DNA of 64,000 nt from Squalus acanthias (taxonomy: Eukaryota): NCBI GenBank assembly GCA_030390025.1, contig CM059427.1, positions 208,196,001 to 208,260,000 of the forward strand, given 5' to 3'. Each line of letters opens with the position of its first letter. The stretch's first letter is position 1. A program made the position numbers and the translations under genes. The notes below the pieces were generated by a model, which was given only the letters and a program-made list of their open reading frames with translations, was not told where the DNA came from and ran no database searches. Below are positions 1,900 to 60,737 of this stretch, piece by piece.

Positions 1900-3170
1900 A
1901 TTGGTGAAGGGTCATAGGCTTTCAGCTGAGTCCAGTTCTTCCATCGTCCCATGCCCTTTATGTTAATGCAAGCACACGTATCCCCACTAATTAAAATCTG
2001 ATATGGTACCGACCATTTTTGGGGCGAACCCGGGTTTTCCTGGTAGATTCTTAACCATTACCTTGGTCCCCGCTGGGGAGATATATGGAAATGTGATCAA
2101 TTCCAAATCTTTATCTCTTTTTTCCTAACTTTCCCGAGTTTGCTGTTTCATTTCTTTTAATTGGCTACTCATTTCCAGGATATATCTGTGGAGTTTATCC
2201 TTTAGGGGACCCACATCTTCTCCTCCAGTCATTATACCATGGGGGAGCTGCATTGCCCTCCCCGTCATTAGTTCACATGGTGATAGGCCCGTGGTTCGAT
2301 TTGGAGTGGCTCTTAGTTTCATTAATACTGTGGGAAGCACATCCACCCACCGTTGCTGTTTTTCCCCCAATGCTTTGGCTACCGCAGTTTTTAAGGTGCT
2401 ATTCATTCTTTCTGCCATTCCAGAACTTTGAGGATGGTTTGGGAGGTGGAATTTCTGTTTTATTGACCCCCTTCCTGTATGGGCGCTTCCTTGATGTAGT
2501 TCTAAATGTATCTGTCTGATGCACGCGGGGGCTATCACCTTTCCATTCTTTCGCCATTTTGCCTCTTCATCTGGTCTAACCCTACTCGGTACCATTCCTG
2601 TCTTTCGTCTTCTGGGGCGTCTGCATGCAATTTACTGATATCTATTTACTCTACCTGTGCACTAGCTACGTTCCCTTCAACGATTTCTTGTTCAAGAGCT
2701 CGCTGTGTTGCTAGATCAGCGGCCTGGTTCCCTTTTTGCTCCTGATTCTGTATCTTCTGGTGCGCTTTGATTTTTATTACTGCAGCTTCTGCTGGGGCTT
2801 TTGTGGCTTCCAAGAGGGCCGCTATTCGCTGCTGGTGTTTTATGTGATCCACTCCGCTCGTCACAAACCCCCTTCTCCCCCAAGCTGTCATATAATCGTG
2901 TACCACTCCGAATGCATATCTACTATCTGTGTAGATGTTTACTGTCTTTCCCCTTGCTAAGTCTAGCGCCTTTGTTAACGCTACTATCTCGGCTCCTTTG
3001 CCGACAAACCGCCGTCTAACCTTCCCGACATTTCTGCCCATCCTGTCCGGGGAGATCCCTCTACATATTTCCTTGACCCGTCTACGTATAGTGTCATCTG
3101 AGCTTCCTCTAGCGGTTCGTCCTGCACGAGGGATTCGTTTAGTTCCCCCTCCGTCTCTGAGAACTAATGC
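1900..3170 (-). pseudogene. pol: ERV pol remnant (RNase H and integrase, internally deleted)
   Basis: AEIVALTKAL...VNIYTDSRYAFGVVH...KIKAH...GNQAAD (RNase H); HPQSSGMAERMNSTLK...LRATPNRTTGLSPCELMTGR (integrase C-terminal core). Confidence 0.92.
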
Positions 3171-6100
3171 TACATACACATGATAACTGATGCTTCATAC
3201 ACATGAGAACTGATGCTACATACACATGATAACTGATGATCATACACATGATAACTGACGCTACATACACATGATAACTGATACTACTTACACATGATAA
3301 CTGATACTACATACACATGATAACTGATAATCATACACATGATAACCGCTACTACATAAACATGATAACTGAAGTTACATACACATGAGAACTGAAGCTA
3401 CATACACATGATTACTGGTGCTACATACACATGATAACTGATACTACATGCACATGATAACTGATGATTCATACACATGATAACCGACGCTACATACACT
3501 TGATAATAGATGCTTCATCCACATGACAACTGATTCTGCATACACATGATAACTGTCGCTACATACACATGAGAACTGATGATGATACACATGCTGACTG
3601 ATACTACTTACACATGATAATTGACTCTACTTACACATGATAACTGATGATCATACACATGATAACTGATGCTAAATACACACGATAACTGATACTACAT
3701 ACACATGATAACTGATACTACATACACATGATAGCTCATGCTACATACACATGATACCTGATGCTGCATACACATGATAACTGATGCCACATACACATAA
3801 TAACTCATGATCATACACATGATAACTTATTCTTTATACACATGATAACTAATGATTCATACACACAACAACTGATGCTTCATACACATAACAACTGATA
3901 CTACATAAACATGATAAATGATTCTACATACACATGATAACTGATGCTTCCTACACATAATAACTGTTGCTTCATACACATAATAGCTGATGCTATATAC
4001 ACATGATAACTGATGCTACATACACAAGATAACTGACACTTCATACACATATTAACTGATGCTACATACACATGATAACGGATACTACATACACAAGATA
4101 ACTGATGCTACATAAACATGATAAATTATACTACATACACATGATAACTGATGCTACATACACATGATAACTGATGCTACATACACATGATAACTGATGC
4201 TACATACACATGATAATTGATACTTCATACACATAATAACTGATGCTACATACACATGATAACTGAAGCTTCATACACATGATAACTGATGCTTCATACA
4301 CATAATAACTGATGCAACATGCACATGATAACTGATGCTACATAAACATGATAACTGATACTTCATACACAGATGAACTGACGCTACATACACACGATAA
4401 CTGATACTACATACACATGATAACTGATGCTACATACACATGATAACTTATTCTACATACACATGATAACTGATGCTACATACAAATGATTACTGATGCT
4501 ACATACACATGATAACTGATACTACATGCACATGATAACTGACGATTCATACACATGATAACTGACGCTACATAGACATGATAATAGATGCTTCATCCAC
4601 ATGACAACTGATTCTACATACACATGATAACTTATTCTTCATACACATGATAACTAATGATTCATACACATAACAACTGATGCTTCATACACAAAATAAC
4701 TGATACTACATACACATGATAAATGATTCTACATACACATGATAACTGATGCTTCATACACATAATAACTGTTGCTTCATACACATAATAGCTGATGCTA
4801 TATACACATGATAACTGATACTTCATACACATATTAACTGATGCTACATACACATGATAACTGATACTACATACACATGATAACTGATGCTACATAAACA
4901 TGATAAATTATACTACATACACATGATAACTGATGCTACATACACATGATAACTGATGCTACATACACATGATAACTGATGCTAAATACACATGATAATT
5001 GATACTTCATACACATAATAACTGATGCTACATGCACATGATAACTGAAGCTTCATACACATGATAACTGATGCTTCATACACATAATAACTGATGCTAC
5101 ATGCACATGATAACTGATGCTACATAAACATGATAACTGATACTTCATACACATACGAACTGATGCTACATACACACGATAACTGATACTACATACACAT
5201 GATAACTGATGCTACATACACATGATAACTTATTCTACATAGACATGATAACTGATGCTACATACAAATGATTACTGATGCTACATACACATGATAACTG
5301 ATACTACATGCACATGATAACTGATGATTCATACACATGATAACTGACGCTACATACACATGATAATAGATGCTTCATCCTCATGACAACTGATTCTACA
5401 TACAGATGATAACTGTTGCTACATACACATGAGAACTGATGATGATACACATGATGACTGATACTAGTTACACGTAAAAATTGACTCTACATAAACATGA
5501 TAACTGATGATCATACACATAATAACTGATACTACATTCACATGATAGCTGATGCTGCATACACATGATAACTGATGCCACATACACATAATAACTGATG
5601 ATCATGCACATGATAACTGATGCTACATAAACATGATAACTGATACTTCATACACCTACGAACTGATGCTACATACACACGATAACTGATAGTACATACA
5701 CATGATAACTGATGCTACATACACATGATAACTTATTCTACATACACATGATAACTGATGCTACATACAAATGATTACTGATGCTACATACACACGATAA
5801 CTGATACTACATGCACATGATAACTGATGATTCATACACATGATAACTGACGCTACATACACATGATAATAGATGCTTCATCCACATGACAACTGATTCT
5901 ACATACACATGATAACTGTTGCTACATACACATGGGAACTGATGATGATACACATGATGACTGATACTACTTACACATGAAAATTGACTCTACATAAACA
6001 TGATAACTGATGATCATACACATGATAACTGATACAACATTCACATGATACCTGATGCTGCATACACATGATAACTGATGCCACATACACATAATAACTG

Positions 6101-6921
6101 ATGATCATACACATGATAACTGATTCTTCATACACTTGATAACTAATGCTTCATACACATAACAACTGATGCTTCATAAACATAATAACTGATACTCCAT
6201 ACACGTGAAAAATGATTCTACATACACATGATAACTGATGCTTCAGACACATAATAACTGTTGCTTCATACACATAATAACTGATGCTATATACACATGA
6301 TAACTGATGCTACATACACATGATAACTGATACTTCATACACATATTAACTAATGCTACACACACATGATAACTGATACTACATACACATCATAACTGAT
6401 GCTACATAAACATGATACATTATACTACATACACATGATAACTGATGCTACATACACATGATAACTGATGCAACATACACATGATAACTGATCATACATA
6501 CACAAGATAACTGATTCTTCATACACATAATAACTGATGCTAAATGCACATAATAACTGATGCTTCATACACATAACATCTGATGCTACATACACATGAT
6601 AACTGATACTTCATACACATACGAACTGATGCTACATACTCATGATAACTGATACTACATACACATGATAACTTATGCTACATACACATGATAACTTATA
6701 CTACATACACATGATAACTGATGCTGCATACACATGATAACTTATGCTACCTATACATGATAACTGATGCTACATACACAAGATAACTGATGCTACATAC
6801 ACATGATAACTGATGCTCATACACATGATAACTGATGCTTCATACACTTGGTAACTGATGCTACATACACATGATAACTAATGCTACATACACATGAGAA
6901 CTGATGCAACATAAACATGAT
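3165..6921. repeat. 23-bp tandem satellite (ATGATAACTGATGCTACATACAC)n, ~160 copies
   Basis: Directly visible 23-nt periodicity. Confidence 0.98.
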
Positions 6922-9724: not shown

Positions 9725-10045
9725 CAGCTGTGGGTCAGTGGGCAGCACACTTTCCTCTGAGTCAGAAGGTTGTGGGTTCAACTCCCATTCCAGAGACTTT
9801 TGCACGAAAATCTAGGCTGACACTCCAGTGCAGTACTGAGGGAGTGCTGCACTCTCGGAGGTGCATTCTTTCGGATGAGAGTTTAAGCCGAATCCCCGTC
9901 TGCTCTCTCAGGTGGACGTAAAATATCCCACGGTACTATTTTGAAGAAGATCAGGGGCGTTATCCCCGGTGTCCTGACCAATATTTATCCTTCAATCAAC
10001 ATAACAAACAGAATATCTGGTCATTAACACATTGCTGTTTGTGGA
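9725..10045 (+). mobile_element. tRNA-derived DeuSINE (SacSINE1/AmnSINE1-like)
   Basis: A/B-box-like head (GGGTTCAACTCCC) and Deu core GCAGTACTGAGGGAGTGCTGCACT...CTCTCAGGTGGACGTAAAA. Confidence 0.85.
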
Positions 10046-10320
10046 AGACTATTCGACAGGACAGTACGGGAAGGCGAATCGGTGACACTGAATTGTATTC
10101 TTCCAACAACAGATACAAACCCTGAGCTTTTCGGGTACCGGCAGCTCCTGGTCGGGCTCAGATAAAAGCTGAGAGCAGAGGAGAGCTCGGTTCCGCTGAG
10201 AGTTTCTGGGGCGGAGCTGTTAGGTGTCGCCATGTATTACTGCGCTCTGAGACCCACAGCTGAGAGTTTCTGGTGGGGGGAGCTGTTAGGTGGCGCCATG
10301 TATTACTGCGCTCTGAGACC
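10046..10320 (+). pseudogene. TCR alpha/delta-type V pseudogene #1 (5' truncated, internal deletion, duplicated 3' end)
   Basis: RTVREGESVTLNCILPTTDTNPELFGYRQ ... SVPLRVSGAELLGVAMYYCALRP; YYCALR ending is typical of TRAV/TRDV. Confidence 0.8.
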
Positions 10321-10359
10321 CACAGCTGCACAGCTCCGTGTTCGTCCTGTACAAGAAAC
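10321..10359 (+). promoter_or_regulatory. 23-RSS of V #1
   Basis: CACAGCT + exactly 23 nt + ACAAGAAAC. Confidence 0.85.
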
Positions 10360-11169
10360 TGCAGCAAACTGTGTGTAAATAGAACAGTGTGTGGCCGCAC
10401 TTCCCGCCTGTGATGGTCTGACTAGGACAGTTACTGTCAGGACAGAATATCCCCACAGGGCAGCTCCTAACAGCTCTGAATAGAGGAGGAAGATTTTAGA
10501 TTTCATTCACTCTATAATGAGAGATGAACAGGAGGAAACCCCCGCAGGTTTAATTGGCCATCGCATCGTGTAATGTGTGTTCAATTTCAAGTTTCCCCTT
10601 TTCACTGCGCGTGTATTTTTGTTCATTATCACTGCACTTAAACCAGCACAGAAATCTGCAGCTTTGCATAGGTTTTGATTGTATTCAAAGGGCTCGAAAC
10701 AGTCCCTTTTCTGAGCGATTGTTTAATTTCTGTCGGTGTGTGAAGGTTCACCGGGAGCATTGACTTCACTCTCCTGTAATATTGGTGTTTACACTGAGCT
10801 ATCCACTCCGTCGGGTAGATGTCATCTGGTCGCTACTTCCAGTGGCATAGTGAATGCATGCTAAGAGAATGAATGCCGATTCTACTAAACTAGCGGTCTG
10901 AAGAGATTTCCCGCTCTGTTTGGGATGTCGCTACCACAGAGATACCAGAAAACATCTTCACCTTGTGTGTTCCCAGCAGAAGGTTAATCAGAGAGAGACC
11001 AGAGAAAATATTCACCTTGTTTGTCCCAGCAGAAGGTTTATCAAACCCGAGCCCCTGTCACCATTTCCGCCTGATTAGTAACAGTGAGTGATATAAACCG
11101 AACATCATCATCTACATTCAAATACAATTTGTCACTTTGAGACGACTTTCATCTTTCAATTAGAGATCA

Positions 11170-12486: not shown

Positions 12487-12795
12487 ATCTGAGCGATGGA
12501 AATTCTGTTACTCAGCGGGAGCCCTCGCTCACACAGACAGAGGGAGAAGATGCCACTTTTACCCGCACCCATCCCGGCGATGGTGTTTACTTGTTCTGCT
12601 ACCGCCAATACCCGGGCAGACAGTCGGAGTATGCAGTGCGGAGGTTATACGGACGGTGGTTCTGAATATCGGGAGGATTTTGCTCAAGGCCGGTTTTCTG
12701 ATACAATCCAGCAGTCAGACAAGTTGTACCGATTGACTATCTCGGGGCTGCGGCTGTCTGACACACACCGCAGGGTATTACTGTGCACAGAGGCT
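12487..12795 (+). pseudogene. TCR alpha/delta-type V pseudogene #2 (frameshifted; first Cys and Trp lost)
   Basis: DGNSVTQREPSLTQTEGEDATFTRT..YLFCYRQYPGRQSEY / EDFAQGRFSDTIQQSDKLYRLTISGLRLSDT / TAGYYCAQR. Confidence 0.88.
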
Positions 12796-12834
12796 CACAG
12801 TAATGGCAAAGAGCTAAAGCCTCGCACAATAATT
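12796..12834 (+). promoter_or_regulatory. 23-RSS of V #2
   Basis: CACAGTA + exactly 23 nt + ACAATAATT. Confidence 0.8.
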
Positions 12835-13279
12835 GCCGGAGGTTTAAGGGGCACAGCTACTGTCTGTTGTGGCCAGTTTATCACAGCGGGTCAGACACTG
12901 ACACGTGAACACATTCCTGTGCGCGCAGACCCGAGCGCAAACCACATAAAACTCGTATAAAACCGTTCACATCGAATACTGATTGCATCTGATTATTTTA
13001 TTAGCTGGGCGAGCGCAGAATTGGCTGCTTTTTTCGTGTATCTCTGGGAGCCCGCCAGTCCCATTGAGAAAACAAACACACCTGCAGGTGGCCCGGAACT
13101 GGTTATATCGGTGAACTGCTGCTGCAGATCTAACGCACGGCAAACGGGCAAATAATGATTGGTTTGAAATACCACTCGACAGTGCAGACAGAGGCAAGTC
13201 AGATGGGGAAGACCCCAATAATTATAATAACTTTATTAAACAATTCTCAATATTAAAACACTTATACATATTAAAACTA

Positions 13280-21169: not shown

Positions 21170-21297
21170 CTTCACCAGAGTGACGGCAGCGCTCTATGAA
21201 ATGCTCAGGAATAACAGGAGGATGAATGTGGAAGCGGTTGTCCAGATGTTGCCGCTCTCGTCCTCACAGTCTTCAATCCAGATGTGGTCTGAGGAAT
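21170..21297 (-). pseudogene. IGHM: IgM heavy chain TM1 exon
   Basis: AG acceptor; DSSDHIWIEDCEDESGNIWTTASTFILLLFLSIS*SAAVTLVK; in-frame stop and donor reads GA instead of GT. Confidence 0.95.
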
Positions 21298-28185: not shown

Positions 28186-28576
28186 TCATTGATAATAATT
28201 GACGAAGTTCATCAATACAAGGGAAAGGTTCACAAACATTGTTCACCGCTGGATTTATTGACCGTTCTGGTGATGATCTTTTAGGGGATCGCTTCATGTC
28301 CCACCACACAGGAGTAAGAAGCGCCGCTGGCCCACTTCTCCGCTGCAATGGATAACAGGCAGTAGATGAAGAAGGAACTGCTGCCGTTCTCCGCCATCAC
28401 CTAGGTGTTCTTGTATTTGCTGGAATTCACCGGCTTGTCATTGACGGTCCACTTGACGACGATCTCTCGAGGGGAGAAACCTCTCCCTAAGCAGGTGATG
28501 ATGACGTACATCTGAGCGGAGACGTCTTCTGCCGAGGGCAGGACGACAGACACGGAAGGTTGCCGCGGATCTTTAG
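28186..28576 (-). pseudogene. IGHM: IgM Cmu4 + secretory tail exon
   Basis: [47 protein letters not shown]...NT*VMAENG...[29 protein letters not shown], frameshifted tail FVNLSLVLMNFVNYYQ*. Confidence 0.96.
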
Positions 28577-29046: not shown

Positions 29047-29355
29047 CTTTTTCCTTGTGGGTGGAATTTCATTTAGGAGTCGGCATATCCTGATGGCTCA
29101 CCACGCAGTCGAACTCATCCCCACTCAGCCAGGCTTGTGTCGAGATGTTGATGTTGCTGATCACATTGCTGTGATCCTCTCCGTGTTGAACGGTAATCTC
29201 TGATTTCAAAGTCTCCTTTTCTCGGGTCCAGGTCACGGTGATTCCATAAAGAGCATCAGACACGACGCAGGTTAAGGTCACCGTCGCCTCCAGTAAGACC
29301 TGTTCTAGTGACGGTTGACGAAGTGTAATCACTGGACCGTTGCATGAGGAAGGAT
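29047..29355 (-). pseudogene. IGHM: IgM Cmu3 exon
   Basis: AG/GT bounded; [34 protein letters not shown]...[27 protein letters not shown]. Confidence 0.96.
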
Positions 29356-33943: not shown

Positions 33944-34258
33944 CCGGAGATCTGGTGATGTCGTGGCTTTGGGTGACTACTTCATGAGTGACCTAGCAGG
34001 TACAGACCGAGCCGGTGAACCATTCCCCGGCGGGGACTGTCAGCAGACTGGTCGCCGAGAAGTTCCCGTTCACTTCACAGACGGGAGAGGTGACGAAGCC
34101 CGCATCAATGTGTTGTCCATTCTTCAGCCAATTCACGGTCAGTGACTCTGGATGGAAATCCATGATTTAACGCACGACGTTTGGAAATCTGCTGCTGTTG
34201 ATTTGTTCACTGGAAATCAGCGTGAGGATAACAGTTGGAGGGACGTCCGGTTTAGAAC
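33944..34258 (-). pseudogene. IGHM: IgM Cmu2 exon
   Basis: [100 protein letters not shown]; GTAAG donor. Confidence 0.95.
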
Positions 34259-34371: not shown

Positions 34372-35545
34372 TTCAGGAGACCAGAACTGTTCACAGTGCA
34401 CCAAGTGTGATATGGAGACCAGAGCTGTGCACTGTATTCTAAATGTGATATGGAGACCAGAGCTGTGCACTGTATTCTAAATGTGATAAGGAGACCAGAG
34501 CTGTGCACAGTATTCAAAGTGTGATATGGAGACCAAAACTGTGCACAATATTCTAAGTGTAATATGGAGACCGGAACGCTACACATTATAGTAAGTGAAA
34601 TATGGAGACGAGAAATCTGCACAGTATTCTAAGTGTGATATGGAGATCTGAACTCTGCACAGTACAGTAAGTGTGTTATGGAGACCACAACTGATCAACG
34701 TATTCTAAGTGTGATATGGAGTGCGGAACTCTACTCAGTATTCTATGTGTGATATGAGACCAGAACTGTGCACAGAACTCTAAATGTGATATGAGACCAG
34801 AACTGTGCACAGTATTCGAAGTGTGATATGTAGACCTGAACTCTGCACAGTACAGTAAATGTGATATGGAGACCAGAATTGTGCACAATACTTTAAGTAT
34901 GATGTGGAGCCCAGAACTGTGCAGTGCTGTAAATGTGATATCGAGGCCACAATTCTGCACAGTACAACAAGTGTGATATGGAGACTGGAAATCTGCAAAG
35001 TACACTATGTGTGATATGGAGACCAGAACTGTGCACAGTATTGTAAATGTGATATGGAGACCTGAACTCTACACAGTATTCAAAGTGTGATACGAGACCA
35101 GAACTTTGCACGATACTTTATGTATGGTGTGGAGACCTGAACTGTGCAACGTTGTAAATGTGATATGGCGGCCAGAATTCTGCACAGTACAACACCTGTG
35201 ATGTGGAGAGCAGAATTGTGTACAGTACACTAAGTGTGATATGGAGACTGGAACTCTGCAAACTATACTAAATGTGATATGGAGACCAGAACTGTGCACA
35301 GTATTCTGAATGTGATATGGAAACCAGAATTATGCACAGCATTCGAAGTGCGATATGGAGACCAGAACAATGCACAGTATTGTAAATGTGATATGAAGAC
35401 CAGAACTGCGCACAGCACACTAAATGTGATATGTAGACCGGAACACTGTAAAGTACTCTAAGTGTGATATGGAGACAAGAATTGTTCACAATACTATAAG
35501 TGTGGACTATCCAAGTTTATATAAATATTGAACATAACTCCTCAC
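34372..35545. repeat. 38-bp tandem repeat derived from CR1 ORF2
   Basis: GTGTGATATGGAGACCAGAACTGTGCACAGTATTCTAA units; minus strand encodes HLEYCAQFWSPY. Confidence 0.93.
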
Positions 35546-35583: not shown

Positions 35584-35883
35584 CTGCCATTGTGATGTTC
35601 CAGACCGACTCACTTCGTCGAACCACGCAATAGATTGTGCTGCTCCCCACCTCTGACTCGGTGAGGGTTAACTGGCTGCTCAGGGTGTAGGTTCCCCTCA
35701 TGTTGAGCACTGATGGGTAAGTCTTAAATCCAGTGGTGAGCGGCTCTTCATCTTTCTTCTAGGAAAGGCTGGTGATTTCGGGGAAGTAGTCCATCGCTAA
35801 ACAGCCGAAGGTCACGGAGCTGTCAGTGTTGGATTGTACACAGGAGGAGAGCAGGGCGTAGAGGATGGGAGGAGACGGTGTCG
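35584..35883 (-). pseudogene. IGHM: IgM Cmu1 exon
   Basis: [94 protein letters not shown]; AG/GT bounded; domain Trp codon is TAG. Confidence 0.96.
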
Positions 35884-36479
35884 CTGGGAAAGTATGGCCA
35901 ATTGAACAAGTTGGACTCTGTAATCCGTGCTCATAAAAAAACCAAAGAACTCGAAATCTGACTGCAGGATAAATTATTTCCATCATTTTCCGCTCGAAGA
36001 CTACATCGGCATTTGAGCTTCTATCAGTTCCATCATACGCACCTGTCGATCCCTTGGTCAGGAACACATCTCTGTAACCCCGAGCTCTATCACATTACAG
36101 AAATAAGAACCTTTTCTCCTCACCACAATAAAGTATATTTCAATGGATCATACAATAGAAGAGCAGAGACGTGTCCCTGTTATTTCGGTCAGCATTTATG
36201 TCTCAATCAACGACACTTTTAGTCATTTATTTCACGGCAGTTTTTTGAAATTGGCTCTGTGTCAATTGACTTCTGCATTTCCTTACAAAACAAGAGTGAC
36301 TACACTTCAGAAGTAACAGCGTAATCCGTGCTTATAAAATTAGCTAAAAATCCTCAAACCTTGACTACCATAGAATTGAACAGGGCCTAGTTTCTAAGAT
36401 CTGCAGATGAAGAGGGAATGATTCGAATCTATCCCTTTCCTTCTCAGTATTTAAGGAAGAGCGATGTTCTTCAACGCAC

Positions 36480-37072
36480 TGTGATTTGTGATAGCGTATG
36501 GTATACTTGGCTTTGTAAATGGTGAACTGAATGTAAAAAAACAAGGAAGTTGTGCTAAACCTTTACAAATCACGGGTTAGGCCTCAGCTGGAGTATTGTG
36601 CACAATTCTGGCACCACAATTTAGGAAGGATGACAAGGCCTCGAAGAGGGTACAGAGGAGGTTTACCAGGATGATACCAGGGACGAGGAACTTCAGTTGT
36701 GTGCAGAGATTGGAGAAGCTGGGATGTTCTCCTTCGAGCAGAAGTTAGGTGGAGACCTAATAGAGGTATTCAAAGATATGGGAGGTTTTGATAGAACAAA
36801 TAGACAGAACCTGTTTCCTCTGGCAAGTAGGTCACAGATTTAAAATAATTGTCAAAGATCTAGAGGGTAAATTGGGGTAATTTCTTCACACGAAGGGTTG
36901 CTAATTTCTGGAATGCACCAGACAGCTGGACATGTAATTGAAGAGTACTCATTTGCAGCGTTACGAGGAAAATACTGGGGTATTGGACGAAATTGGACAG
37001 CTCTTTCAGAGCCGGCACAGGCAAGACGGGCCGAATTGCCTCTTTCTGTGCTCTAAGTTGCACTGATTCTAC
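36480..37072 (+). mobile_element. Old CR1 3' fragment
   Basis: GGTTAGGCCTCAGCTGGAGTATTGTGCACAATTCTGG and tail. Confidence 0.8.
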
Positions 37073-37799
37073 ACGAGTCAGCGGAAATAGTTCTTCCCGA
37101 TTGAATGGAAGGAAACGTTTCATATTCTGAACACCTATCAGATCTATTTTATTCGTTGTTATAAAGAAAGAGGATATTTAAAATAAAGGGATATCAGCAA
37201 TCTGACGTAACTGAGTGAATCGGTTACTGTTATAAAGTCTTAAAGCTCATTGTGAATGACGGCTCATTGCAGGCTGACTGTAAATCATTAAATGTTTCAC
37301 AGAAGTGCAGCTCAGTGACTGACAGCCTTGTGTTCTGACCCAGTTCAATAACTGCAACTCGGCCGAATTTGTCCCTTTTCCAAAGAAAATTGAACGAAAC
37401 AATGGTTTCAAACATAAAGTTCCCATGATGGTTATTTGGCGCGGGAGAATCAACATTCTACATTTAAATTTTCAAAATAACTTCCAGCCCCCCGTCAGAC
37501 CAGAACAGACGCTGCTTTCTGGAGCGTTACAGTCACTTCCTGAATCTGTTTGTTCTGAAAGTGAGCTCCGGATCAGACCAATCTCATTCAATAATTATCT
37601 GATACTCAAAATGTTTAAACATTAACAAATCATTCAAATTTGGGCATTTTTTTCAGAAAGAACGTTAACATCAATTAATGTGCATTGTGTCATCGGGGCA
37701 ATGGAACGATTTATTTTTATATATCTGGCTCAAGCACTCGCGCCTTATTAGTTAGATGCCGATTAAGGTTCCTTCAATACTGTTGGAAAAACCATTCTC

Positions 37800-38115
37800 A
37801 TGACAGATACAGGACAGATAAAATATAGTAAATCTCACTCTACACTGCTCTGTCACGCACTGTAAGGTCAGCTATAGCAAAGGTTGAATTCACTTTAAAC
37901 AGCCTACTGCACTGTCCTGTCAGACACTCCGGGTCAAATATAGCAAGGTTTACATTTCGAGTAAAGCTCCCTCTACAATTTTCCGTCAAACACTCCCAGG
38001 GCAGTTACAGCACCAGTTCGATACAGAATAAAGTTCCCTCTACACTGTCCCTTCAAACACTCCCAGGGCAGGTACAGCATGGGTTAGAAACTGACAAAAG
38101 CTCCTTATACAGTCT
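37800..38115. repeat. Degenerate 67-bp minisatellite (reverse orientation)
   Basis: AAACACTCCCAGGGCAGGTACAGCA units. Confidence 0.75.
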
Positions 38116-40379
38116 CCCTGCAGTTATTCTGAACTGCTTCTTCTGAATGTCACAAACTGGTTTACTGATTTCATTTCCGAGGCGCCTCCTCAACCGCAAT
38201 GTCAACTGTTCAAGTTTCTCACAGATACAAGTTTCTTAAATAACTGAGTCAAATTACACACCCTTTAATAGAGGAGCACTAACCAGGTTTACAACCAGTC
38301 AGGAGGACTCCTGATTCTCACACTGTGAGCAGTCGCCGGGAAACAGAACAGACACAAAGGGTGCAACAATGGTACTCGCGGCAGATGGGTCTGTTCAATC
38401 TGTTAATTTCAATGAAGCTGTTTGATTTCTAATTTATTTCTTGTCAATTTTCGACCACCTCAACTCTGCACGTTCTTTGAAATTAAACTGGTATTAATGT
38501 GAAAAACTCTTCATCATCCAACAATTTCTCCCTCTCTGTCGACAATCTTGCAAACCGTGTATGATTTAATTTCCCTGAAAACAAGTGTGTCGAAATAATT
38601 CACATTCCAGGATAATTTGCTGCCCGTAACCCGGGACTCAGCGGCAGAGTAAGAATGTAACAAACCAGGAGACATTTACATTGAAAACCGATTACCCACT
38701 GATGTGGTATAATTTCATAATTAAATATAACCTATAAATTCATCGAGGGGAAACTCGAAGTTAATTCATTAAAATCTGCGGCGATACCTTCTCGAGCCGA
38801 ACACAGCTGAGAAAGAAATATATTGTTTCTTAAATGAATTTTAGACTTCATGAAAAATTCACCAACCCTTGAAATTTTGCACTAACTGTAATCCTGGCAA
38901 TTGTGAGCGGTCATTTATGTTGAATGAATTGGCACTGATGTTATATTCTAAGTTAATGTTCATGTCAGCTGATGTTACTCTGTATCATTGAAAATCATCT
39001 GTGAGCCTGTCTGGCCCTTCCTCCTCAGAGCCACCCGCACCTGGAACTGGTGTAATTAAATTAATCTGCTTGAATTTCAGTGTGTTATCTGTCATCTCCA
39101 GTCTTATTAATAAAATTAATTCAGAGTAATTTTAAACCTGTTTCTGACTGGTAACTTATGCAATATTAGGGTTTTAATTAAATTGGCATGATAATTCATC
39201 AATATTAAAATATCAAACATCATATTAATACATAAATACAATCAGACTAATATATTCATTTTACTAAAATAAAATCACATTCGAATAATTAAAAATGATC
39301 ACGAACTTCTAATCCTGTCCAGTTCTCTACCTACACCGTTTTAAACTCGTCATGATTCTGATCTCTCTGATCTAACATAACTCCGTCTATTCTCATCGTG
39401 TAGTTCACATTATGGATTTAGGAGTGGACTTTTTTAAATAGTTCAATGTCCGGCCGGGGTCACATCTCACTAACTGCCGATGGGCTGAAACACCGCCTGT
39501 TAACTAAAGCTGAATTCTCGAGTTAAAATATTGTCCTCAATCGTAAACATAAAAAAATGTGTATTAATTAAAAAACACCCGGGCAGTTTGCAGTCAGTAA
39601 CAGAGCCTCCGCTGATAACTAACACAAACAATCTTTTATATTTTTTCTCCCGTAATTCACACTATGCCAGTAAATTAATTATGAAATATAGTCTGCTATT
39701 TATTGAAAATAAGTTCCAGAATGATCAGTGTAAAACTGGACGAGAACAATTCATTCAGACCATCTGCGGCACTGATACTTCATGAGCAAATGGAGGAGAG
39801 ACTTTGTTCATCAAATTAATGATTGATAAGAATTAAACATAACCCGCGGATATAATCTGTCTTTTGTCTATTGCTCTGTCCCGTATACAGCAGAGCTCTG
39901 GGAGACAGGATGTTGTTTTAAATTCAAAATAATATGAACCTTTTGTAATTAAATTAATCTGAATGAATTTCAATGGGTTATTTGTCTGTCTTCAGCCTTA
40001 CACAGTCTGAACCTTCCTTCAATTAAAATAGAATGACATGAACAATTATTTGACTGCCAGCGACTTCAGTGTCTCAGCCTTTGAATTTGCTGTTTAGTTT
40101 AGTAACAATTATTTCGCTATCAAACAAACAATAATATTGAAGGACTAACAAATTTTCGGCTGCACAGTATGAATTTAATAACTCGCCAGATATATTAAAT
40201 TGTCAAACTGCAATTTATAACACGGATTTAAGTTGTATTTAAATTCAACCCGTTATTCATCTGTGTAAATCATAGGGTAACAAGTAATTAAAACCCCGAA
40301 TCATACTGAACACAACGGTGGAATCAGTATGTTGTTATTGAAATAATTGCAGGCAAAATTAAAAACACTCTCCCGCCTC

Positions 40380-43300
40380 TAAAATTTTCCGCTCACGGTA
40401 AAATTTTCCGCTCACAGAGGCGGCGGACCTGGGTGGAGCGCCTGCGGCCAGGCGGCGGCTGTAAAAGAGGCGGCGGCGACCAGGCAGGCTTACCAATCTG
40501 AGCTCCTGGAGCGGGAGAGAGAGAATTAAAAAATAATCAAAGTGTTACGTCTCAGAAAGCAGGTAAGTGATTGGTTGGTGAGTATTTATCTTTTTCTCCT
40601 TTTTTCCATACTTAAATTCTGTGGTTTATAGTTTCTAGAGTCTCTGCGGTGTAGCGGGGACTGCTGTTAAGGAAGGGCCCTTGAGTATATCATTTAATTG
40701 AAGTGAAATTGGTGGGATTCAATTAGTTTAATTTTAATTAATTAATTAAAGGGTAAGTCATGGCAGGAGAGCTCGGAGGCGTGACATGCTCTTCCTGCTA
40801 TATGTGGGAAATCAGGGACGCTTCCTGTATCCCTGACGACCATGTGTGTGCTGCAGCTACTGACGGACCGCATTGCGGCGCTGGAGCTGCGGATGGATGC
40901 ATATTGGAGAATTCGTGACGCTGAGAAGGTCGTGGATGTTACATTTAGCGAGTTGGTCACACCGCAGGTAAAGAATGTACAGGCAGGAAGTGAATGGGTG
41001 ATCACCAGGCAGAGTAAGAGGTGCAGGCAGGTAGTGCAGGGGTCCCCTGTGGCCATCCCCCTCTCAAACAGATATATCACTTTGGATGCTGTTGGGGGGG
41101 GATGAATTATCAGGGGAAGGCGGCAGTAGCCAACTTCCTTGCACCATGGGTGGCTCTGCTGCACAGGCTGGGAGGAAAAAGTGTGGAAGAGCTATAGTGA
41201 TAGGGGATTCAATTGTAAGGGGAATAGATAGGCGTTTCTGCGGCCGCAAACGAGACTCCAGGATGGTGTATTGCCTCCCTGGTGGAAGGGTCAAGGACGT
41301 CTCGGAACGGCTACAGAACATTTTGGAAGGGGAGGGCGAACAGCCAGTTGTCGTGGTGCACATAGGCATCAACGATATAGGTAAAAAACGGGATGAGGTC
41401 CTAAAAGCAGAATATAGGGAGTTAGGAGGTAAATTAAAATATGGGTCCTCAAAAGTAGTAATCTCAGGATTGCGACCAGTGCCACGTGCTTGTCAGAGTA
41501 GAAATAGGAGGATATTTTAAATGAATACGTGGCTAGAGGAAGTGTGCAAGGGGGAGGGATTCAAATTCCTTGGACATTGGAACCGGTTCTGGGGGAGGTG
41601 GGACCAGTACAAACGGGACGGTCTGCACCTGGGCAGGGCCGGGACCGATGTCCTAGGGGGAGTGTTTGCTAGTGCTGTTGGGGAGGGTTTAAACTAAAGT
41701 GGCAGGGTGTTGGGAACCTGAGCAGAGATACAGAGGAAAGGGAAACAAGGATAAAAGCTAAAGACAGGAAGGAGAAAAACAAAAGTAGAAGGCAAAGAAC
41801 TCAACGGTTTAAATCAAACATGGTCACAGTAAATAATAATTCATATAGGTCTGAGAGCGTTAAAAAAACAAGCCTGAAGGATTTGTGTCTCAATGCAGGG
41901 AGCAATCATAATAAGGTGGATGAATTAGCTGCGCAAATAGAGGTAAATGAATACGATTTGATTGGGATTACAGAAACATGGCTCCAGGGTGGCCAAGGCT
42001 GGGAACTCAACATCCAGGGTTATTCAATATTTAGGAAAGATAGGCAAAAGAGAAAGGGGGTGGGGTAGCATTGCTGGTTAAAGAGGGGTTTAACACAATT
42101 GAAAGGAAGGATATTAGCTCTGATGATGCAGAATCTGTATGGGTAGAACTGAGAAATAACAAGGGGCAGAAAACGTTAGTGGGAGTGGTATATAGACCTC
42201 CAAACAGTAATACGCAGGTTCGGAACGGCATTAAAAGGGAAATTAGAGAAGCATGCAGTAAGGGCACAGCAGTCATCATGGGTGACTCTAATTTACATAT
42301 AGATTGGGCTAACCAAATTAGTAAAAATACTGAGGAGGAGGAATTCCTGGAATGTTTACGAGATGGTTTTCTGGAACAATTTGTCGAGGAACCAACTAGA
42401 GATCAGGCCATCTTAGACTGGGTATTATGTAACGAGAAAGGATTAATTAGCAATCTTGTTGTACGAGGCCCCTTGGGTCAGAGTGATCATAATATGATAG
42501 AATTCTTCATTCGGATGGAGAGGGAAGTAGTTGAATCAGAGACTCGGGTCCTGAAATTAAATAAAGGAAACTACGACGGTATGAGGCGCAAATTGGATAG
42601 GATTGATTGGGGAATGTCACTCAAGGGGTTGACGGTGGATAGGCAATGGGAAATATTCAAAGACTGCATGGATGAACTACAGAATTTGTCCATCCCAGCG
42701 TGGCAAAAGAATAAAACAAAAAGGGTGACTCAACTGTGGCTAACAAGGGAAATTAGGGATAGCATACGATCCAAGGAGATGGCATATAAATTGGCCAGAA
42801 AAAGCGGTAGCCCTGAGGATTGGGAGCAGTTTAGGATTCAACAAAGGAGGACAAAGGGATTAATTTAGAAGGGGGAAATAGAATATGAAAGTAAGCTTGC
42901 TGGGAACATAAAAACTGACTGTAAGAGCTTTTATAGATATGTGAAGAGAAAAAGATTAGTGAAATCAAGTGTAGGTCTCTTGCAGTCAGAAGCGGGTGAA
43001 GTTATAATGGGGAACAAAGAAATGGCAGACCAATTAAATGCATATTTTGGTTCTGTCTTCACAAAGGAGGACACAAATAACCTCCCACAGATGTTGGAGA
43101 ACATACGGTCTGATGAAAGGGAGGAACTGAAAGAAATCAGTATTTGCAGGGAAATGGTGTTAGGGAAATTGACGGGATTGAAGGCCGAAAACTCCCCAGG
43201 GCCTGATAATGGACATCCTAGGGTACTTAAGGAAGTGGCCCTAGAAATAGTAGATGCATTGCTGATCATCTTCCAACATTGTATGGAATCTGGAACTCTG

Positions 43301-44771
43301 CCCATGGATTGGAGGGCAGCTAATGTTACCCCACTATTCAAAAAAGGTGGTAGAGAGAAAGCGGGGAACTACAGACCGGTAAGCCTGACATCGGTATTGG
43401 GGAAAATGCTTGAGTCCATTATAAAGGAGTAATAGCTGAGCATTTGAAAAACAGTGACAGGATCGGACAAAGTCAACATGGATTTACAAAAGGTAAAGCG
43501 TGCTTGACTTATCTACTGGAATTTTTTGACTATGTAACTGGGAAAATAGATAAGGGAGAACCAGTAGATGTGGTGTATTTGGACTTTCAAAAGGCTTTCG
43601 ATAAGGTTCCGCATAAGAGATAAGCGTGTAAAGTTAAGGCACATGGGATTGGGGGTAAGGTATTGACTTGGATAGAGAACAGGTTGGCGGACAGAAATCA
43701 GAGAGTAGGAATCAATGGGTATTTTTCTGACTGGCAAGCAGTGATTAGTGGGGTACCGCAGGGATCAGTCCTTGGACCCCAGCTATTCACAATATACATT
43801 AATGATCTAGATAAGGGAACTAAATGTAATATCTCCAAGTTTGCAGATGACACAAAGCTGGGTGGGAGTGTGTGCTGCGAGGAGGATACCGAGAAACTCC
43901 AGGATGATTTGTACAGGTTGGGTGAGTGGGCAGTAGCGTGGCAGATGCAATATAACGTGGATAAGTGCGAGGCTATCCACTTTGGTGTCAAAAACAGAAA
44001 GGCAGACTAATATCTGAATTGCAATAGATTGGGAGAAGGGGAAGTGCAACGACACCTGGGTGTCCTTGTGCACCAGTCGCTGAAAGTAAGCATGCAGGTG
44101 CAGCAGGCGGTGAAGAAGGCAAATGGTATGTTGGCCTTCATCGTGAAAGGGTTTGAGTATAGGAACAGGGATGTCCTGCTGCAGTTGTACAGGGCCTTGG
44201 CGAGACCACACCTTCAGTACTGTGTGCAGTTTTGGTCGCCTTATCTGAGGAAGGATGTTCTTGCTATTGAAGGAGTTCAGCGAAGATTCATAAGGCTGAT
44301 ACCTGGGATGGCAGGAATGACATATGAGGAGAGATTGGGTCGATTGGTCTGAAACTCGCTGGAGTATAGAAGAATGAGAGGGGTTCTCATCGAGACATAT
44401 GAAATTCTGACAGGTCTGGACAAACTAGATGCAGGAAGAATGTTCCCGATGGTCGGAGAGTCCAGAACCAGGGATCATAATCTAAGGATAACGGGTAAGC
44501 CATTTAGGACAGAAATGAGGAAGAATTTCTTCACCCAGAGAGTGGTGAACCTGTGGAATTCTCTACCACAGAAGGTAGTTGAGGCCAAGTCATTAAATAT
44601 ATTCAAGAATGAGTTAGATATATTTCTTAAAGTAAAGGTATCAAGGGATATGGGGAGAAGGCAGGTACAGGGTACTGAGTTTGGATGATCAGCCATGAGC
44701 TCATCGAATGGCGGAGCAGGCTCGAGGGGCCGAACGGCCTACTCCTGCTCCTATCTTCTATGTTTCTATGT
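40380..44771 (+). mobile_element. Near full-length CR1 LINE in the JH-Cmu1 intron (ORF1 esterase, ORF2 EN+RT, disrupted)
   Basis: GC-rich 5'UTR, CSSC zinc motif, IGDSIVRG/HIGIND/DGLHL, ITETWL, GVVYRPP, SDHNMI, KFADD, tail. Confidence 0.97.
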
Positions 44772-44779
44772 AATTGAGC

Positions 44780-46090
44780 CCAATGTACAGCAGGATTGTG
44801 GAAGGCGAATACTGGTTTGTATATTAATATTAATACTATTGCATATTTTAATAATATTGGGAGATATTATCGCATTATAATCGTTTGATTAATATTAATT
44901 TAATTTAACTGTAAACCTGAACACTTGCTAATTATGTAGTTCTTAATTATAGTAACAGTTCAAACATTAAATATGTGCATCGTAAACCATACATTAATAG
45001 TTGAATGCATAATTATCACTTCAATAAAAAGATACGTTAACATACCTTTCAAAAATTTTTGATTTCTAACTCCTTCCTGTTTTCCGCCTATAATCTTCTT
45101 TCCAACATTTTTAAAAACATGTAACGTTTGCATTAGATCAGAAACCTGCCGCTCGATGTCACCGAGATTAAACATTATAGAAACGCCAAACAGTTTCACA
45201 AATTCTAGGTATTCAAAGTAACCCAGACACACGCTCTCCTCAGCAGATCAGCATTAAATGACATCACTGAGGGGCTGAGTCCCTCGACAGAACCTTTCAT
45301 GGAGCAGCAGCTTAATTCTATGAACACTTTCAGCAGAATCAAATACAACATTGCCAAAATATCTCAATAGAGAATCCACCGAACCCGCCAGTCACTGAAC
45401 GAATTAATTATTGAAATAAGCAGGAATATAAAATAATGACAGCAGAATAGTGAGTAGACGGATCATGTTCAATATTTTAATATTGATATTGTAGCATATT
45501 TTAGTAATATTGGATGATATCACTACATTGAAATAATTTAAGTTATATAAATCAAATCAAAGCTGTTCCAGGCTGCAAATTTGTTAATTATGTTGATTTT
45601 AATTACAGTAACATTTCATGTATTAACTATGAGCGTTCGTGAACATTAGATTAATGGATGACATTTAGTTAGTTATCACGTTAAAATATCACAAGATTAT
45701 TTTTGAGCACTGAAGCTTTCTGTTTTCTGCCTGCAATCTTATTTCAAACACATTTAAACACAATCTTTGGTTTCGATCAGAAAACCTGCATCAATTCGAT
45801 GTCACCGAGATTAAACATTGCAGAAACGCTAAAAGGTTAAAATCCGTTAGGTATTTAAAGTTACGCAGCCACACAGTCTCATCAGCAGATAAACACCAAA
45901 TCACATCAATCAGGGGCTCAATCCTTCAACTGTATTTTCTGTGGAGAAGCTGTTTAATTCTATAATCGCTTTGCAGCAGATTCAAATGGAACATTGCAAA
46001 AAATCACAATATAGAATCCACCGAACCGAAGTTTCAGTGAACGAAATAATTGTTAAAATAAACAGAAATATCAAATAAAGACACAAGTAC
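44780..46090. repeat. Diverged ~645-bp tandem duplication just 3' of JH
   Basis: CGATGTCACCGAGATTAAACATT at ~45154 and ~45797; AGAATCCACCGAACC at ~45371 and ~46013. Confidence 0.85.
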
Positions 46091-46121
46091 AACAGTTACT
46101 TAATGAGTGCATGTTTCATAC

Positions 46122-46490
46122 CTGCAGTCACCGTCACCATGGTCCCTTGTCCCCAGCATCCCATGACCCAGTAAACCCTGCTGCTGTGGTGTCCTGTACA
46201 GTAATAGATGGCGGTGTCTTCGGTCCTCACGTTCTTCATATCCAACGCGAAGATGTTTGAAGTGTCTTTGGACGGAGTAAATCGGCTCTCAATCCCTGGA
46301 GCGCAGTTCTAGCTCGATCAACTGAGACAGCTAACCAGCCACTCCAACCCCTGTCCGGGAACATGTCGGACCCAGTGCATATAGGTGCTGCCAAGATCGA
46401 TCCCGCTGGTTTTACAGGTCAGTCTCAGGGAGCCTCCTGGACTGCCGGTCTCTGCCTCTGACTCAGTCAACACGACATCCGACTGGATAC
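46122..46490 (-). pseudogene. IGHV: Pre-joined (germline-joined) IgM VH-D-JH exon
   Basis: [121 protein letters not shown]; in frame, no RSS, 369 nt between AG and GT. Confidence 0.97.
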
Positions 46491-46617
46491 CTGTAAAAAA
46501 AATCAAAAGCCCTGAGGCTTAATCCTGGTGAAATGATTCATGACTCTGTAACATTCCGGAGAGAGACTAACACTGAGACAGTAGTAGTGAGAGACTTGGA
46601 CAATAAAAACTTCTCAC

Positions 46618-46663
46618 CGGATAAGAAAGCCAGCAACAGACTGAGAGAAATCGCACATCTCAT
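46618..46663 (-). pseudogene. IGHV: VH leader exon
   Basis: MRCAISLSLLLAFLS-G + GTGAG donor, 46 nt. Confidence 0.93.
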
Positions 46664-46707
46664 CCTCCTGGCCATTTCGGGAAATGGTTCTGGCAAGAAC
46701 TCACTGA

Positions 46708-46872
46708 GCATGTTCGCGCCCGGGTGGCCCTGGAGATGGAGCACGCGGTGTCCGCCGGCACGCTTGAGTTTTTCCGCGACCGGTGAGCGCCGCGGGGGCT
46801 GGAGTGCATCGTCACCCCGGACTACCAAATTTTAATTTGATTTGTTAAGTTTCCTTTAAAGTTTTATTTAGT
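46708..46872 (+). mobile_element. 3' end fragment of an L1/Tx1-like LINE directly upstream of VH leader
   Basis: HVRARVALEMEHAVSAGTLEFFRDR*APRGLECIVTPDYQILI* then T-rich 3'UTR; resembles Tx1-type ORF2 C-terminus (recalled, not searched). Confidence 0.55.
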
Positions 46873-47570
46873 TACAGATAATTGATTGTTTTTTTCAAAA
46901 TAGTAAGAACTGACTGATCAAACCCGCTCCCGGACTGTTGTATTGCGGTCCCAGTGATCGGCAGTTAAATACCCGGCAGATGGGGGCGGGGTTACAGGCG
47001 CCGCCTATTGATTCCCTGATAGAGGCGGCTTCTGGAGCCATGTCACATCGTCCACATCACCCATAGAATGGACTCATATCTGGACTGTAAATAAATCTCT
47101 TTATTTCCTCACTATTTACATGACGAGTGAATCTCTAAGATTAAATTACATTACCAGGGTCTAAAGAGACTGCCAGTGTGTGTTACTCCATCTCCCCGTA
47201 CCTATACCGTCACTCTCTACCAATAAAGTAACCCCTATAATATATTGCTCTCGGTCTATATAACTGAATGCGGGAATGGGTAAACTGATTCTGTTTACAA
47301 TGTGGATGGCTATAGCTACACGATTTGGGTCCAGAGATGAGTAGAAACCGCTCACATTTTACAAGTTTCCCGCATTGCATTTCTCTAACTGCCCCTGAGT
47401 TTGTGACCCTAAGACAGTCTTTTATAAAATTAGCTGTAATAAAAGTACGCTTGCGTGATAATTAAGGAGTGAGTTGACAGAGACACGTAAGAATGTAGGG
47501 CCCGCCCGCTTCAGATCAGCTTTTTAAAAGAGAAGCTGTTGAACCAGAACAGATAAAGCGATTAGATAGA

Positions 47571-47820
47571 NNNNNNNNNNNNNNNNNNNNNNNNNNNNNN
47601 NNNNNNNNNNNNNNNNNNNNNNNNNNNNNNNNNNNNNNNNNNNNNNNNNNNNNNNNNNNNNNNNNNNNNNNNNNNNNNNNNNNNNNNNNNNNNNNNNNNN
47701 NNNNNNNNNNNNNNNNNNNNNNNNNNNNNNNNNNNNNNNNNNNNNNNNNNNNNNNNNNNNNNNNNNNNNNNNNNNNNNNNNNNNNNNNNNNNNNNNNNNN
47801 NNNNNNNNNNNNNNNNNNNN
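47571..47820. other. Assembly gap
   Basis: N run. Confidence 1.
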
Positions 47821-48765: not shown

Positions 48766-48986
48766 NNNNNNNNNNNNNNNNNNNNNNNNNNNNNNNNNNN
48801 NNNNNNNNNNNNNNNNNNNNNNNNNNNNNNNNNNNNNNNNNNNNNNNNNNNNNNNNNNNNNNNNNNNNNNNNNNNNNNNNNNNNNNNNNNNNNNNNNNNN
48901 NNNNNNNNNNNNNNNNNNNNNNNNNNNNNNNNNNNNNNNNNNNNNNNNNNNNNNNNNNNNNNNNNNNNNNNNNNNNNNNNNNNNNN
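48766..48986. other. Assembly gap
   Basis: N run. Confidence 1.
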
Positions 48987-59250: not shown

Positions 59251-59829
59251 TGGTTCGTGCCATTATAACGGTGTGCAAATATTTCCAATTGTATTGTTGG
59301 CATTTTACTGTGGTTGAATTATCACACAGTTATCACTGTGTACATTTTGTTCTATTGTGTTTTTTGATACTTTCACTGTGGGTGAATTATAACACTGTTA
59401 TCACGGTGTATTGTGTACCGTATACTGCAATGTGAAAATTTCTCTCTGTTAAATCGGTGTAGATATTGTATTACTGCTCCTTCGTCCTGCCAATATCTCG
59501 TACTGTTCTCGTCCTCGTTCTTTACTCCACATTGAGTGAGGGCGCATAACTGATGCCATCTCTCCTATCTGAGTCCCAGTGTTGTAAGTTGAATGTTCGG
59601 TCTAGGACTAAGCCCACAGTTTATCCTGACAGCGCAGTGCAGTGCTGAGGGAGCGCTGCATTGTTTGAGGGGCCTTTCTCCGGTGGAACAGGAGGTCACC
59701 GACCGGAAACTCTAACTCTGTTCTCTTTTCGCAGACGCTGCCTAAGCTGTGAGCATTGCTGGCATTGTCTGCTCTCTCTTTCTCTCTCTCAATACTTATT
59801 CACTGACTGTCTTTCTGTCTCTATTACAG

Positions 59830-60737
59830 CTAATTTGGCAGTGATTGTGATCCTGTCCCGAGGAAGGTGCGGTCTCTCCAGATGTATCACTTACTACCTG
59901 GTGTCCATGGCGGTGACGGATCTCCTGGTCATTATCACGGCTGCGATACTTAACCGGATTGTAGGTATTTATTTCCCATTCAGCTTCTTGTCCATTACTC
60001 CGGTCTGTAGTCTCAATCTTGCGTTAATTTATGGAATCATAGACAGTTCTGTCTGGGTAACAGTCGCTTTCACCTTTGATCGATTTGTAGCCATGTGTTG
60101 TGAGAAGCTGAAAATAAGATATTGCACCGAGAAAACGGCGGCCGTGGTTATAGGAACGGTCTGTTCACTGAGTTGTGCTGGAAACATCCCCTGGTACTTT
60201 ATGTATGAGCCGTTGTTTATAATTAACGATGTTTCTTGGCTCTGCAGCTTAAAAGCAATATGTTATACCTCATCTGCATGAGCCGAATTTGACTGGATTC
60301 ACCACATTTTAACCCCGTGTCTCCCATTCATTCTGATTTTGCTGCTCAATGTTCTGACCGTCAGACAAATTCTAGCGGCCAATAGAGCCCGCAGGAGACT
60401 CCGGGCCCACAGCAATGGGGAGAATCAGAGTGACCCAGAGATGGAGAGCCGGAGAAAGACCATCGTCTTACTCTTCTGTATCTCGGGCATTTTCATACTG
60501 TTATATTTATTGTATCTTTTAACTTTCCTCTCTGTCCGGATTGCGAAAGTTACATATTTCTCAGGTTCAAATTGCAAGGAATCAAATTATATTCTGGAGG
60601 AAAGCGGGTTGATGCTTCATCTTTTGAGTTCCTGCATCAACCCATTTATTTATGCAGGGATCCAGTGTAAATTCAGAGAGGAGTTAAAGAATGGGGTGAA
60701 ATATCCTTTGAGTCTAATTGTTAAATTATTTAAATGA
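59830..60737 (+). pseudogene. Class A GPCR main exon, GPR139/GPR142-like family; one in-frame TGA at 60279-60281
   Basis: TTACAG acceptor; ANLAVIVIL, YLVSMAVTDLL, VAFTFDRFVAMCC, TPCLPFILILLLN, INPFIY; first coding exon not located. Confidence 0.88.

Follow-up and report, generated by a model that had tools for sequence, protein, structure and literature searches.

An inherited V-D-D-J join in an IgM heavy-chain cluster of Squalus acanthias, now a pseudogene

Joined exon and gene layout

The DNA studied here, referred to as the window, is a stretch of 64,000 nucleotides from Squalus acanthias (CM059427.1, positions 208,196,001 to 208,260,000). It carries on the minus strand an IgM heavy-chain gene in which a single exon, 46,490-46,122, combines V, D1, D2 and J. 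Its translation keeps one open frame across the join, reading through V, the motif YYC, a CDR3 of 14 residues and then J, with GTATGA directly after. The distance from the Cys codon to the end of J is 79 bp, in frame, whereas the 12 split clusters of this genome have 1,182-1,384 bp. An RSS scan of the whole 64-kb window (at most two mismatches in the heptamer, three in the nonamer and four in total) detected no heptamer/nonamer site within 46,122-46,663; the closest matches are weak and chance-like and lie at 45,870-45,872 in the J-C intron. Applied to split sister clusters, a scan of this type recovers the V-23, 12-D1-22, 12-D2-12 and 23-J signals. An earlier note on this DNA had proposed an in-frame V-D-D-J join free of RSS, and both translation and scan bear it out. 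The gene and associated features are given below; the two copies mentioned are the window and a second copy of the joined exon at 206.9 Mb on C3, the sequence that also holds the window.

46705..46920 (ends approximate): very high-copy repeat, about 200 bp, inserted between promoter and leader with duplication of a target of about 14 bp; not present in the 206.9 Mb copy
46618..46663, minus strand: leader exon of 46 nt, MRCAISLSLLLAFLS, with GT donor; sister clusters have the same 46-nt exon
46491..46617, minus strand: leader intron of 127 bp, GT..AG
46189..46490, minus strand: VH segment whose 3' end, 12 nt from the Cys codon (46,200), is untrimmed; both halves match Pfam V-set, under the curated cut-off
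46175..46188, minus strand: D1-derived stretch of 14 nt, matched to germline D1 of split clusters
46166..46176, minus strand: D2-derived stretch, agreeing with a germline D2 at 10 of 11 letters
46122..46167, minus strand: JH segment, GT donor at 46,121; Tyr>Cys before Trp common to both copies
35884..46121, minus strand: J-Cmu1 intron of about 10.2 kb, containing a LINE-type element of about 4 kb
35584..35883, minus strand: Cmu1 exon, core Trp changed to TAG at 35,761
33944..34258, minus strand: Cmu2 exon, GAG acceptor, B-strand Cys changed to Arg, stops at 34,169 and 33,995
29047..29355, minus strand: Cmu3 exon, stop at 29,071; Pfam C1-set; 89-91% DNA identity to Cmu3 of C29 clusters
28186..28576, minus strand: Cmu4 and secretory tail, stops at 28,403 and 28,283, 1-nt deletion at tail start, tail Cys changed to Tyr
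21170..21297, minus strand: TM1 exon, stop at 21,196, GT donor lost
12490..12835, plus strand: broken antigen-receptor V-like segment with a 23-spacer RSS at 12,796
10040..10360, plus strand: another broken V-like segment, its 23-spacer RSS at 10,321, belonging to the transferred block as well

The minicluster layout is complete, with leader intron, J-C intron, Cmu1-4, secretory tail and TM exons, and the Cmu exons are 87-92% identical to those of split clusters. An altered TM2 lies near 21,029 (minus strand), and an additional in-frame ATG is found upstream of the leader, at 46,675, in both C3 copies. The LINE-type element occupies roughly 40,400-44,750 of the J-C intron. Two N runs are present in the window, 47,571-47,820 and 48,766-48,986; both are outside the gene and none is in or near the exon. 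As the earlier note had stated, the leader and J-C introns are retained and all four Cmu exons are kept, unlike in the nurse shark gene IgM1gj. A retrocopy or processed pseudogene is ruled out, as the leader, J-C and C-C introns and the TM exons stand in genomic layout. Tandem repeat arrays were also observed at about 4,800-6,920 (unit of about 23 bp) and, within the Cmu1-Cmu2 intron, at 34,400-35,500.

Nine in-frame stops interrupt the gene: two in V, both in CDR2 (46,320, TGA; 46,311, TAG), one in Cmu1, two in Cmu2, one in Cmu3, two in Cmu4 and one in TM1. The other lesions are the loss of the Cmu2 B-strand Cys, the 1-nt deletion in the tail, the loss of the tail Cys and the loss of the TM1 donor. 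On this sequence the gene is a pseudogene and would give no antibody product today.

Germline D1, D2, J and V ends for comparison with the junction were taken from the 12 split clusters of the same genome. The ordered arrangement D1 then D2 has a score of 15, which none of 2000 shuffles of the 22-nt junction core reached. The two D remnants suspected in the earlier note are recovered in this way, and the alignment it had proposed, of the junction to unrearranged segments of sister IgM clusters, matches D1, D2 and J in order. The D1 fit holds with about three mismatches, and later mutation blurs the joints. The J is of the VMGYW type, as in cluster L029. A GT overlap, which may represent microhomology, is found at both the D1/D2 and the D2/J joint, and the overlap at D1/D2 occurs too in L009 and in L102/L103. 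The joints sit at coding ends with little trimming, and neither a signal joint nor a P nucleotide was seen at the junction.

Inheritance of the join and the IgM clusters of the genome

A junction pattern of 32 letters, with up to two mismatches allowed, was searched across the 3.7-Gb assembly and occurs in exactly two places, the window (C3:208.24 Mb) and a locus about 1.3 Mb away (L002, C3:206.92 Mb). The two are 95% identical over the exon and differ in 78 of 938 J-intron columns (8.3%). L002 has a different stop, at the FR2 Trp, and has neither the 200-bp insertion upstream of the leader nor the LINE-type element within the J-C intron; no C exon was found in the 60 kb downstream of it. A third fragment (C3:208.42-208.44 Mb) has a single V-like segment together with Cmu1 and Cmu2, and no VDJ was found in the 46 kb around it; the Cmu1+2 tree groups it with the window as its sister (99/96).

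The join is also present in an independent DNA run, X1, where a contig of 742 letters spans L002:1977-2700 with 11 other letters and 6 gap letters. This contig bridges the join with 36 letters of V and shows one difference from the Cys codon to the end of J. On the window it covers 45,900-46,224 with 17 other letters, and it has the L002 letter at all four listed positions covered by that contig alone; it resembles the 206.9 Mb copy, and the window's own copy is known from this assembly alone. Among the matches listed, a bridging contig occurs in one of five DNA runs, and runs X3, X6, X14 and X16 have none among the matches listed, from which absence does not follow. An X3 contig is identical to the J and intron of L002 over 186 letters and has 41 further upstream letters. 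Among the runs listed as containing the sequence none is recorded as RNA, which speaks neither for nor against expression.

As the same junction core occurs in a diverged duplicate and in the bridging X1 contig, the join is inherited rather than somatic. These two observations carry weight because shark lymphocytes make the same partial patterns somatically, according to the available text of PMC2435157. The diverged copies with their common junction core also place the join before the duplication (8.3%), and the duplication precedes the split between L002 and the X1 contig (1.5%). The available text of PMC10587355 gives no per-year rate for absolute dating. Germline joining rather than retrocopying, as put forward in the earlier note, is supported by the diverged duplicate, the X1 contig and the retained introns.

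The window is located 0.55 Mb from the end of C3. Its surroundings on C3 resemble a GPCR-rich zone of C29 and many unplaced contigs, and a run of 500 N (C3:208,162,488-987) precedes the window by 33 kb; the placement of this region on C3 may result from a scaffolding error. Relatives of the downstream V-like segments sit between IgM clusters on C29, which indicates that the block was moved or copied as DNA. In keeping with this arrangement, TCR-type V exons are described between elasmobranch IgH clusters in the available text of PMC12227049. One of the two V-like segments has no Pfam match, and weak V-domain matches were obtained among PDB sequences for a downstream V-like segment (best E 0.016). 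With PSMB5 as marker for the published antigen-receptor complex, 0 of 28 proteasome matches fell on C29, and C29 is not equated with that complex here. Elsewhere in the window, an intronless rhodopsin-type GPCR with an internal stop is found at 59,649-60,737 (plus strand), whose very large family (2581 first-look candidates) is spread over C29, C26, the end of C3 and numerous unplaced contigs, and open frames at 2,125-3,194 (minus strand) resemble by eye the RNase H and integrase of an LTR-type element.

A census with a J pattern, which favours young, intact units, found 45 IgM J segments, all of which were classed. Twelve of the 45 V-J units are split, 19 are partly joined and 14 are fully joined. 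The partly joined units are VD-D-J (1), VD-DJ (4), VDD-J (8), V-D-DJ (2), V-DDJ (3) and V-DD-J (1), and they keep their remaining RSSs, like RAG products. The fully joined units represent eight distinct junctions, seven of them in frame (binomial p=0.0026 against 1/3), a share that the bias of the J pattern may inflate. In five of the in-frame joins (L003/4, L006, L017/19, L106/7/9 and L110) V shows no stop. Certain near-identical pairs, one member on C29 and the other on an unplaced contig, may be alleles. Most IgM units are located on C29 at 5.9-10.3 Mb or on unplaced contigs, and C3 has only the window/L002 pair.

The V tree was built from 35 family-1 V regions, the ten family-2 units being left out. 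The window and L002 form a pair (100/99), which nests at 100/100 in a group with C130 clusters that are split and C988 clusters that are joined. The J-intron tree, weak for split clusters with fewer than half of its columns filled, agrees in placing the pair near the C130/C988 group. The window V has 82-89% DNA identity to the V of ordinary IgM clusters. Since it nests among split IgM clusters, the join is secondary. Two sisters (100/100), L016 (C29:6.60 Mb) with VD1-D2J and L009 (C29:8.65 Mb) with VD1D2J, stand at successive stages; L009, joined through a GT overlap, is not in frame, and its J has lost 24 nt between repeats. A further cluster (L006, L126-L127; C29:10,253,571-10,271,400) contains an in-frame joined VDJ reading CVGYALVMGYW and has an open leader, V, Cmu1-4, secretory tail and TM1, and is by its sequence a candidate for an intact four-Cmu germline-joined IgM.

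Fragments on C29 at 16.63, 17.02 and 18.16-18.20 Mb (L077-L091) contain Cmu1, Cmu3 and Cmu4 without Cmu2. Those at 16.63, 17.02 and 18.16 Mb are closest to the window in Cmu1+3+4 (91/89) and in the downstream V-like segments, and a search for a progenitor found no V or J in 50 kb at each of these three. The fragment at 16.6 Mb is broken and is nearest to the window in its C exons. Three further arrangements were observed in the genome. A split IgM cluster on C130 (L120-L121, 538,600-544,130) has a tandem duplication of the Cmu3-Cmu4 exon pair. C911 (421,000-519,000) contains, interspersed with numerous V-like segments, no fewer than five V segments that share one orientation and have about 72% identity to the window V; they may form an IgM-like V array within a TCR locus. 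In L023 (C449:0.35 Mb) and L024 (C29:8.79 Mb) the V end is altered and G-rich letters are added before an intact V-RSS, which looks like an inherited open-and-shut joint with N addition.

Origin of the join and competing readings

We consider it highly probable that the window contains an inherited, fully joined V-D1-D2-J IgM cluster, likely produced by RAG cutting of a split cluster in germ cells and now a pseudogene. RAG action at the join is what we infer from established V(D)J biology together with published shark work (available parts of PMC2193156, PMC4279169 and PMC5192425), and germ-cell RAG joining is the published reading for joined Ig genes of sharks in the first two of these sources. 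RAG1/2 would have cut the V-23, 12-D1-22, 12-D2-12 and 23-J signals in germ-line cells, and end joining would have removed about 1.2 kb in three joints, leaving the V end whole and 2-nt GT overlaps. The three joints were possibly made in separate generations, as the sister clusters L016 and L009 suggest. The whole block, comprising the cluster, the TM exons and the two downstream V-like segments, would have been copied as DNA and duplicated near the C3 end, away from the main IgM array on C29, and the copies would then have decayed independently.

Compatible with this origin, and in our view rather doubtful, is the further proposal that the joined gene was expressed for a time as a fixed-specificity IgM before its decay, possibly as a neonatal antibody like IgM1gj, with a GKQCL-type short tail and skipping of Cmu2. 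The in-frame excess among the distinct full joins favours selection on such joins generally, but a single gene would be in frame by chance in one case of three, and the excess is subject to the bias of the J pattern towards young, intact units. Early-life expression of joined shark Ig genes is reported in the available text of PMC2193156 and PMC4279169. No stop in V, Cmu1 or Cmu2 is common to the C3 copies, and even the Cmu1 Trp became a stop by different changes in different copies. Three Tyr>Cys changes in CDR2 and J are common to the copies, and Cmu2 has a weak GAG acceptor in both C3 copies of that exon; all of these points have been counted in favour of past expression. Against it, the private changes common to the C3 copies are 2 synonymous and 15 nonsynonymous, a small count of low power that tends to miss synonymous changes, in which neutrality is not rejected (p=0.27) and no purifying selection is seen. 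The tail frameshift and the loss of the tail Cys are common to the C988 cluster, which has a different junction, and the deletion occurs also in the C29:16.6 Mb fragment; alteration of the tail therefore probably preceded the join. As a result of the frameshift the tail has a short Cys-bearing end, GEQCL in the window and GKQCL in others, and it is speculation that a shortened Cys-bearing tail was tolerated. No similar CDR3 was found among longer proteins, where two matches to the V-CDR3-J half (68-69% identity) have unrelated CDR3s; the named protein match is a sawshark Ig heavy chain (69% identity).

Pairwise rates were also compared, with low power, as open clusters of different subfamilies also come near 1. 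The pN/pS of Cmu1+2 between the window and the 208.43 Mb copy is 0.89, as expected from decay after duplication, against 0.47-0.68 among three open C29 clusters. In the V framework the value between copies is 0.52 (5 synonymous, 7 nonsynonymous), not above that of open clusters. The earlier note had proposed a once-functional antibody that later decayed. Its second half stands, with nine stops, the tail frameshift and the loss of the TM donor, while the evidence on former function points both ways and leaves that half tentative.

A broader reading of the census is possible, if short of probable. Stepwise and repeated germ-line RAG activity would be on record, with 33 of the 45 units partly or fully joined, all six partial patterns present, the sisters L016 and L009 at consecutive steps and an open-and-shut-like joint in L023/L024, and selection would retain in-frame full joins as fixed-specificity antibodies; the window gene would be a dead former member of this set and L006 its living four-Cmu case.

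The remaining readings concern how the join itself arose. Unlikely, to our mind, is a non-RAG deletion or an aberrant RAG joint (hybrid, open-and-shut) in which the V heptamer was kept and fused to D and J. Directly after the untrimmed V end stands CACAGC, with which the V heptamer begins (score 6), and the extra letters before an intact V-RSS in L023/L024 speak for aberrant joints in this genome. D1, however, covers the same letters and runs on through 14 nt (score 7), so that by sequence it would account for CACAGC as well as or better than the heptamer does; D2 and J come next, in their normal order and normally trimmed, and spacer and nonamer are gone.

Slightly less probable still is the entry of a lymphocyte-made VDJ into the germ line by cDNA-templated conversion of an existing cluster. 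Such a conversion would likewise leave intact introns on either side of an in-frame exon, and the in-frame excess would then need no selection to account for it, but the 19 partly joined units keep intervening DNA and RSSs, which are absent from spliced mRNA, and the V and J-intron trees place the window/L002 pair alike, near C130/C988.

A somatic B- or T-cell rearrangement caught in the assembly, or a misassembly, is largely refuted and very improbable. Blood is a common source of DNA, which was counted in its favour. Shark lymphocytes make all these configurations somatically, as far as the available text of PMC2435157 goes, but one event cannot occupy two loci with 8% intron divergence, separate insertions and separate stops. 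The presence of the join in run X1 and the absence of N in or near the exon also stand against it.

Least probable of all is an archaic, never-split V gene dating from before the RAG transposon: a single V-J exon with split leader and no RSS is indeed found in UrIg/UrIg2 (available text of PMC12227049), but D1 and D2 are recognisable here, Cmu1-4 are ordinary, and a V nested among split clusters at the identities given above rules such a gene out on the V tree.

Significance and comparison with known systems

The window gene is unexceptional in this genome and illustrates a known phenomenon well without being a new one, as 33 of 45 IgM units are partly or fully joined and such clusters have long been described in cartilaginous fish. 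A broken germline-joined IgM by itself is one more case of a phenomenon known from sharks and skates for decades. Its value is that of a clean, internally controlled example, in which inheritance is evident without bench work and the join is dated relative to a duplication. The census makes the frequency and order of germ-cell RAG joining testable in one genome, and likewise the question whether selection preserves in-frame joins as a ready source of neonatal antibodies. The genome-wide series of joining stages and the apparently intact cluster at C29:10.25 Mb are stronger leads than the window copy. No paper on this locus was found; subscription papers and supplements, for example table S1 of PMC12227049, may list these clusters.

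Germline-joined IgM clusters of the types VD-J, VD-DJ and VDJ are known in cartilaginous fish, for example horned shark and clearnose skate (available text of PMC5192425, PMC4279169, PMC2193156 and PMC2435157). The window gene is a member of this group: V, D and J are fused without RSS in a minicluster layout, the join is inherited, the ancestry is split, and D1 and D2 are those of the family. As in horned shark and clearnose skate, as far as these sources describe them, a genomic V-D1-D2-J-Cmu minicluster with its introns kept occurs alongside split relatives. It differs in that the window copy is a pseudogene, is duplicated and is assembled outside the main IgM array, and in that a diverged duplicate and a census of the whole genome anchor its join.

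With nurse shark IgM1gj the window gene shares a fully joined, in-frame IgM heavy-chain V region. IgM1gj is described in the available text of PMC4279169 and PMC5192425 as without Cmu2 and as the main neonatal IgM. The window gene has a Cmu2 exon (33,944-34,258), albeit with a GAG acceptor, and is broken; assignment to the IgM1gj subclass is ruled out by that exon, and with nine stops the present sequence could not give a neonatal serum IgM.

The NS4 (kappa) genes of nurse shark are likewise joined genes from split relatives. Four of six are in frame and two are pseudogenes (Lee et al. 2000, available text of PMC2193156), compared with seven of eight distinct full IgM joins in frame here. NS4 is a light chain with one joint, whereas the window gene is a heavy chain with three. 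UrIg and UrIg2 resemble the window exon in the single V-J exon, split leader and lack of RSS, but, according to the available text of PMC12227049, the UrIg genes are ancient and distant from IgM, whereas the window V falls within IgM V family 1 and its exon holds D remnants.
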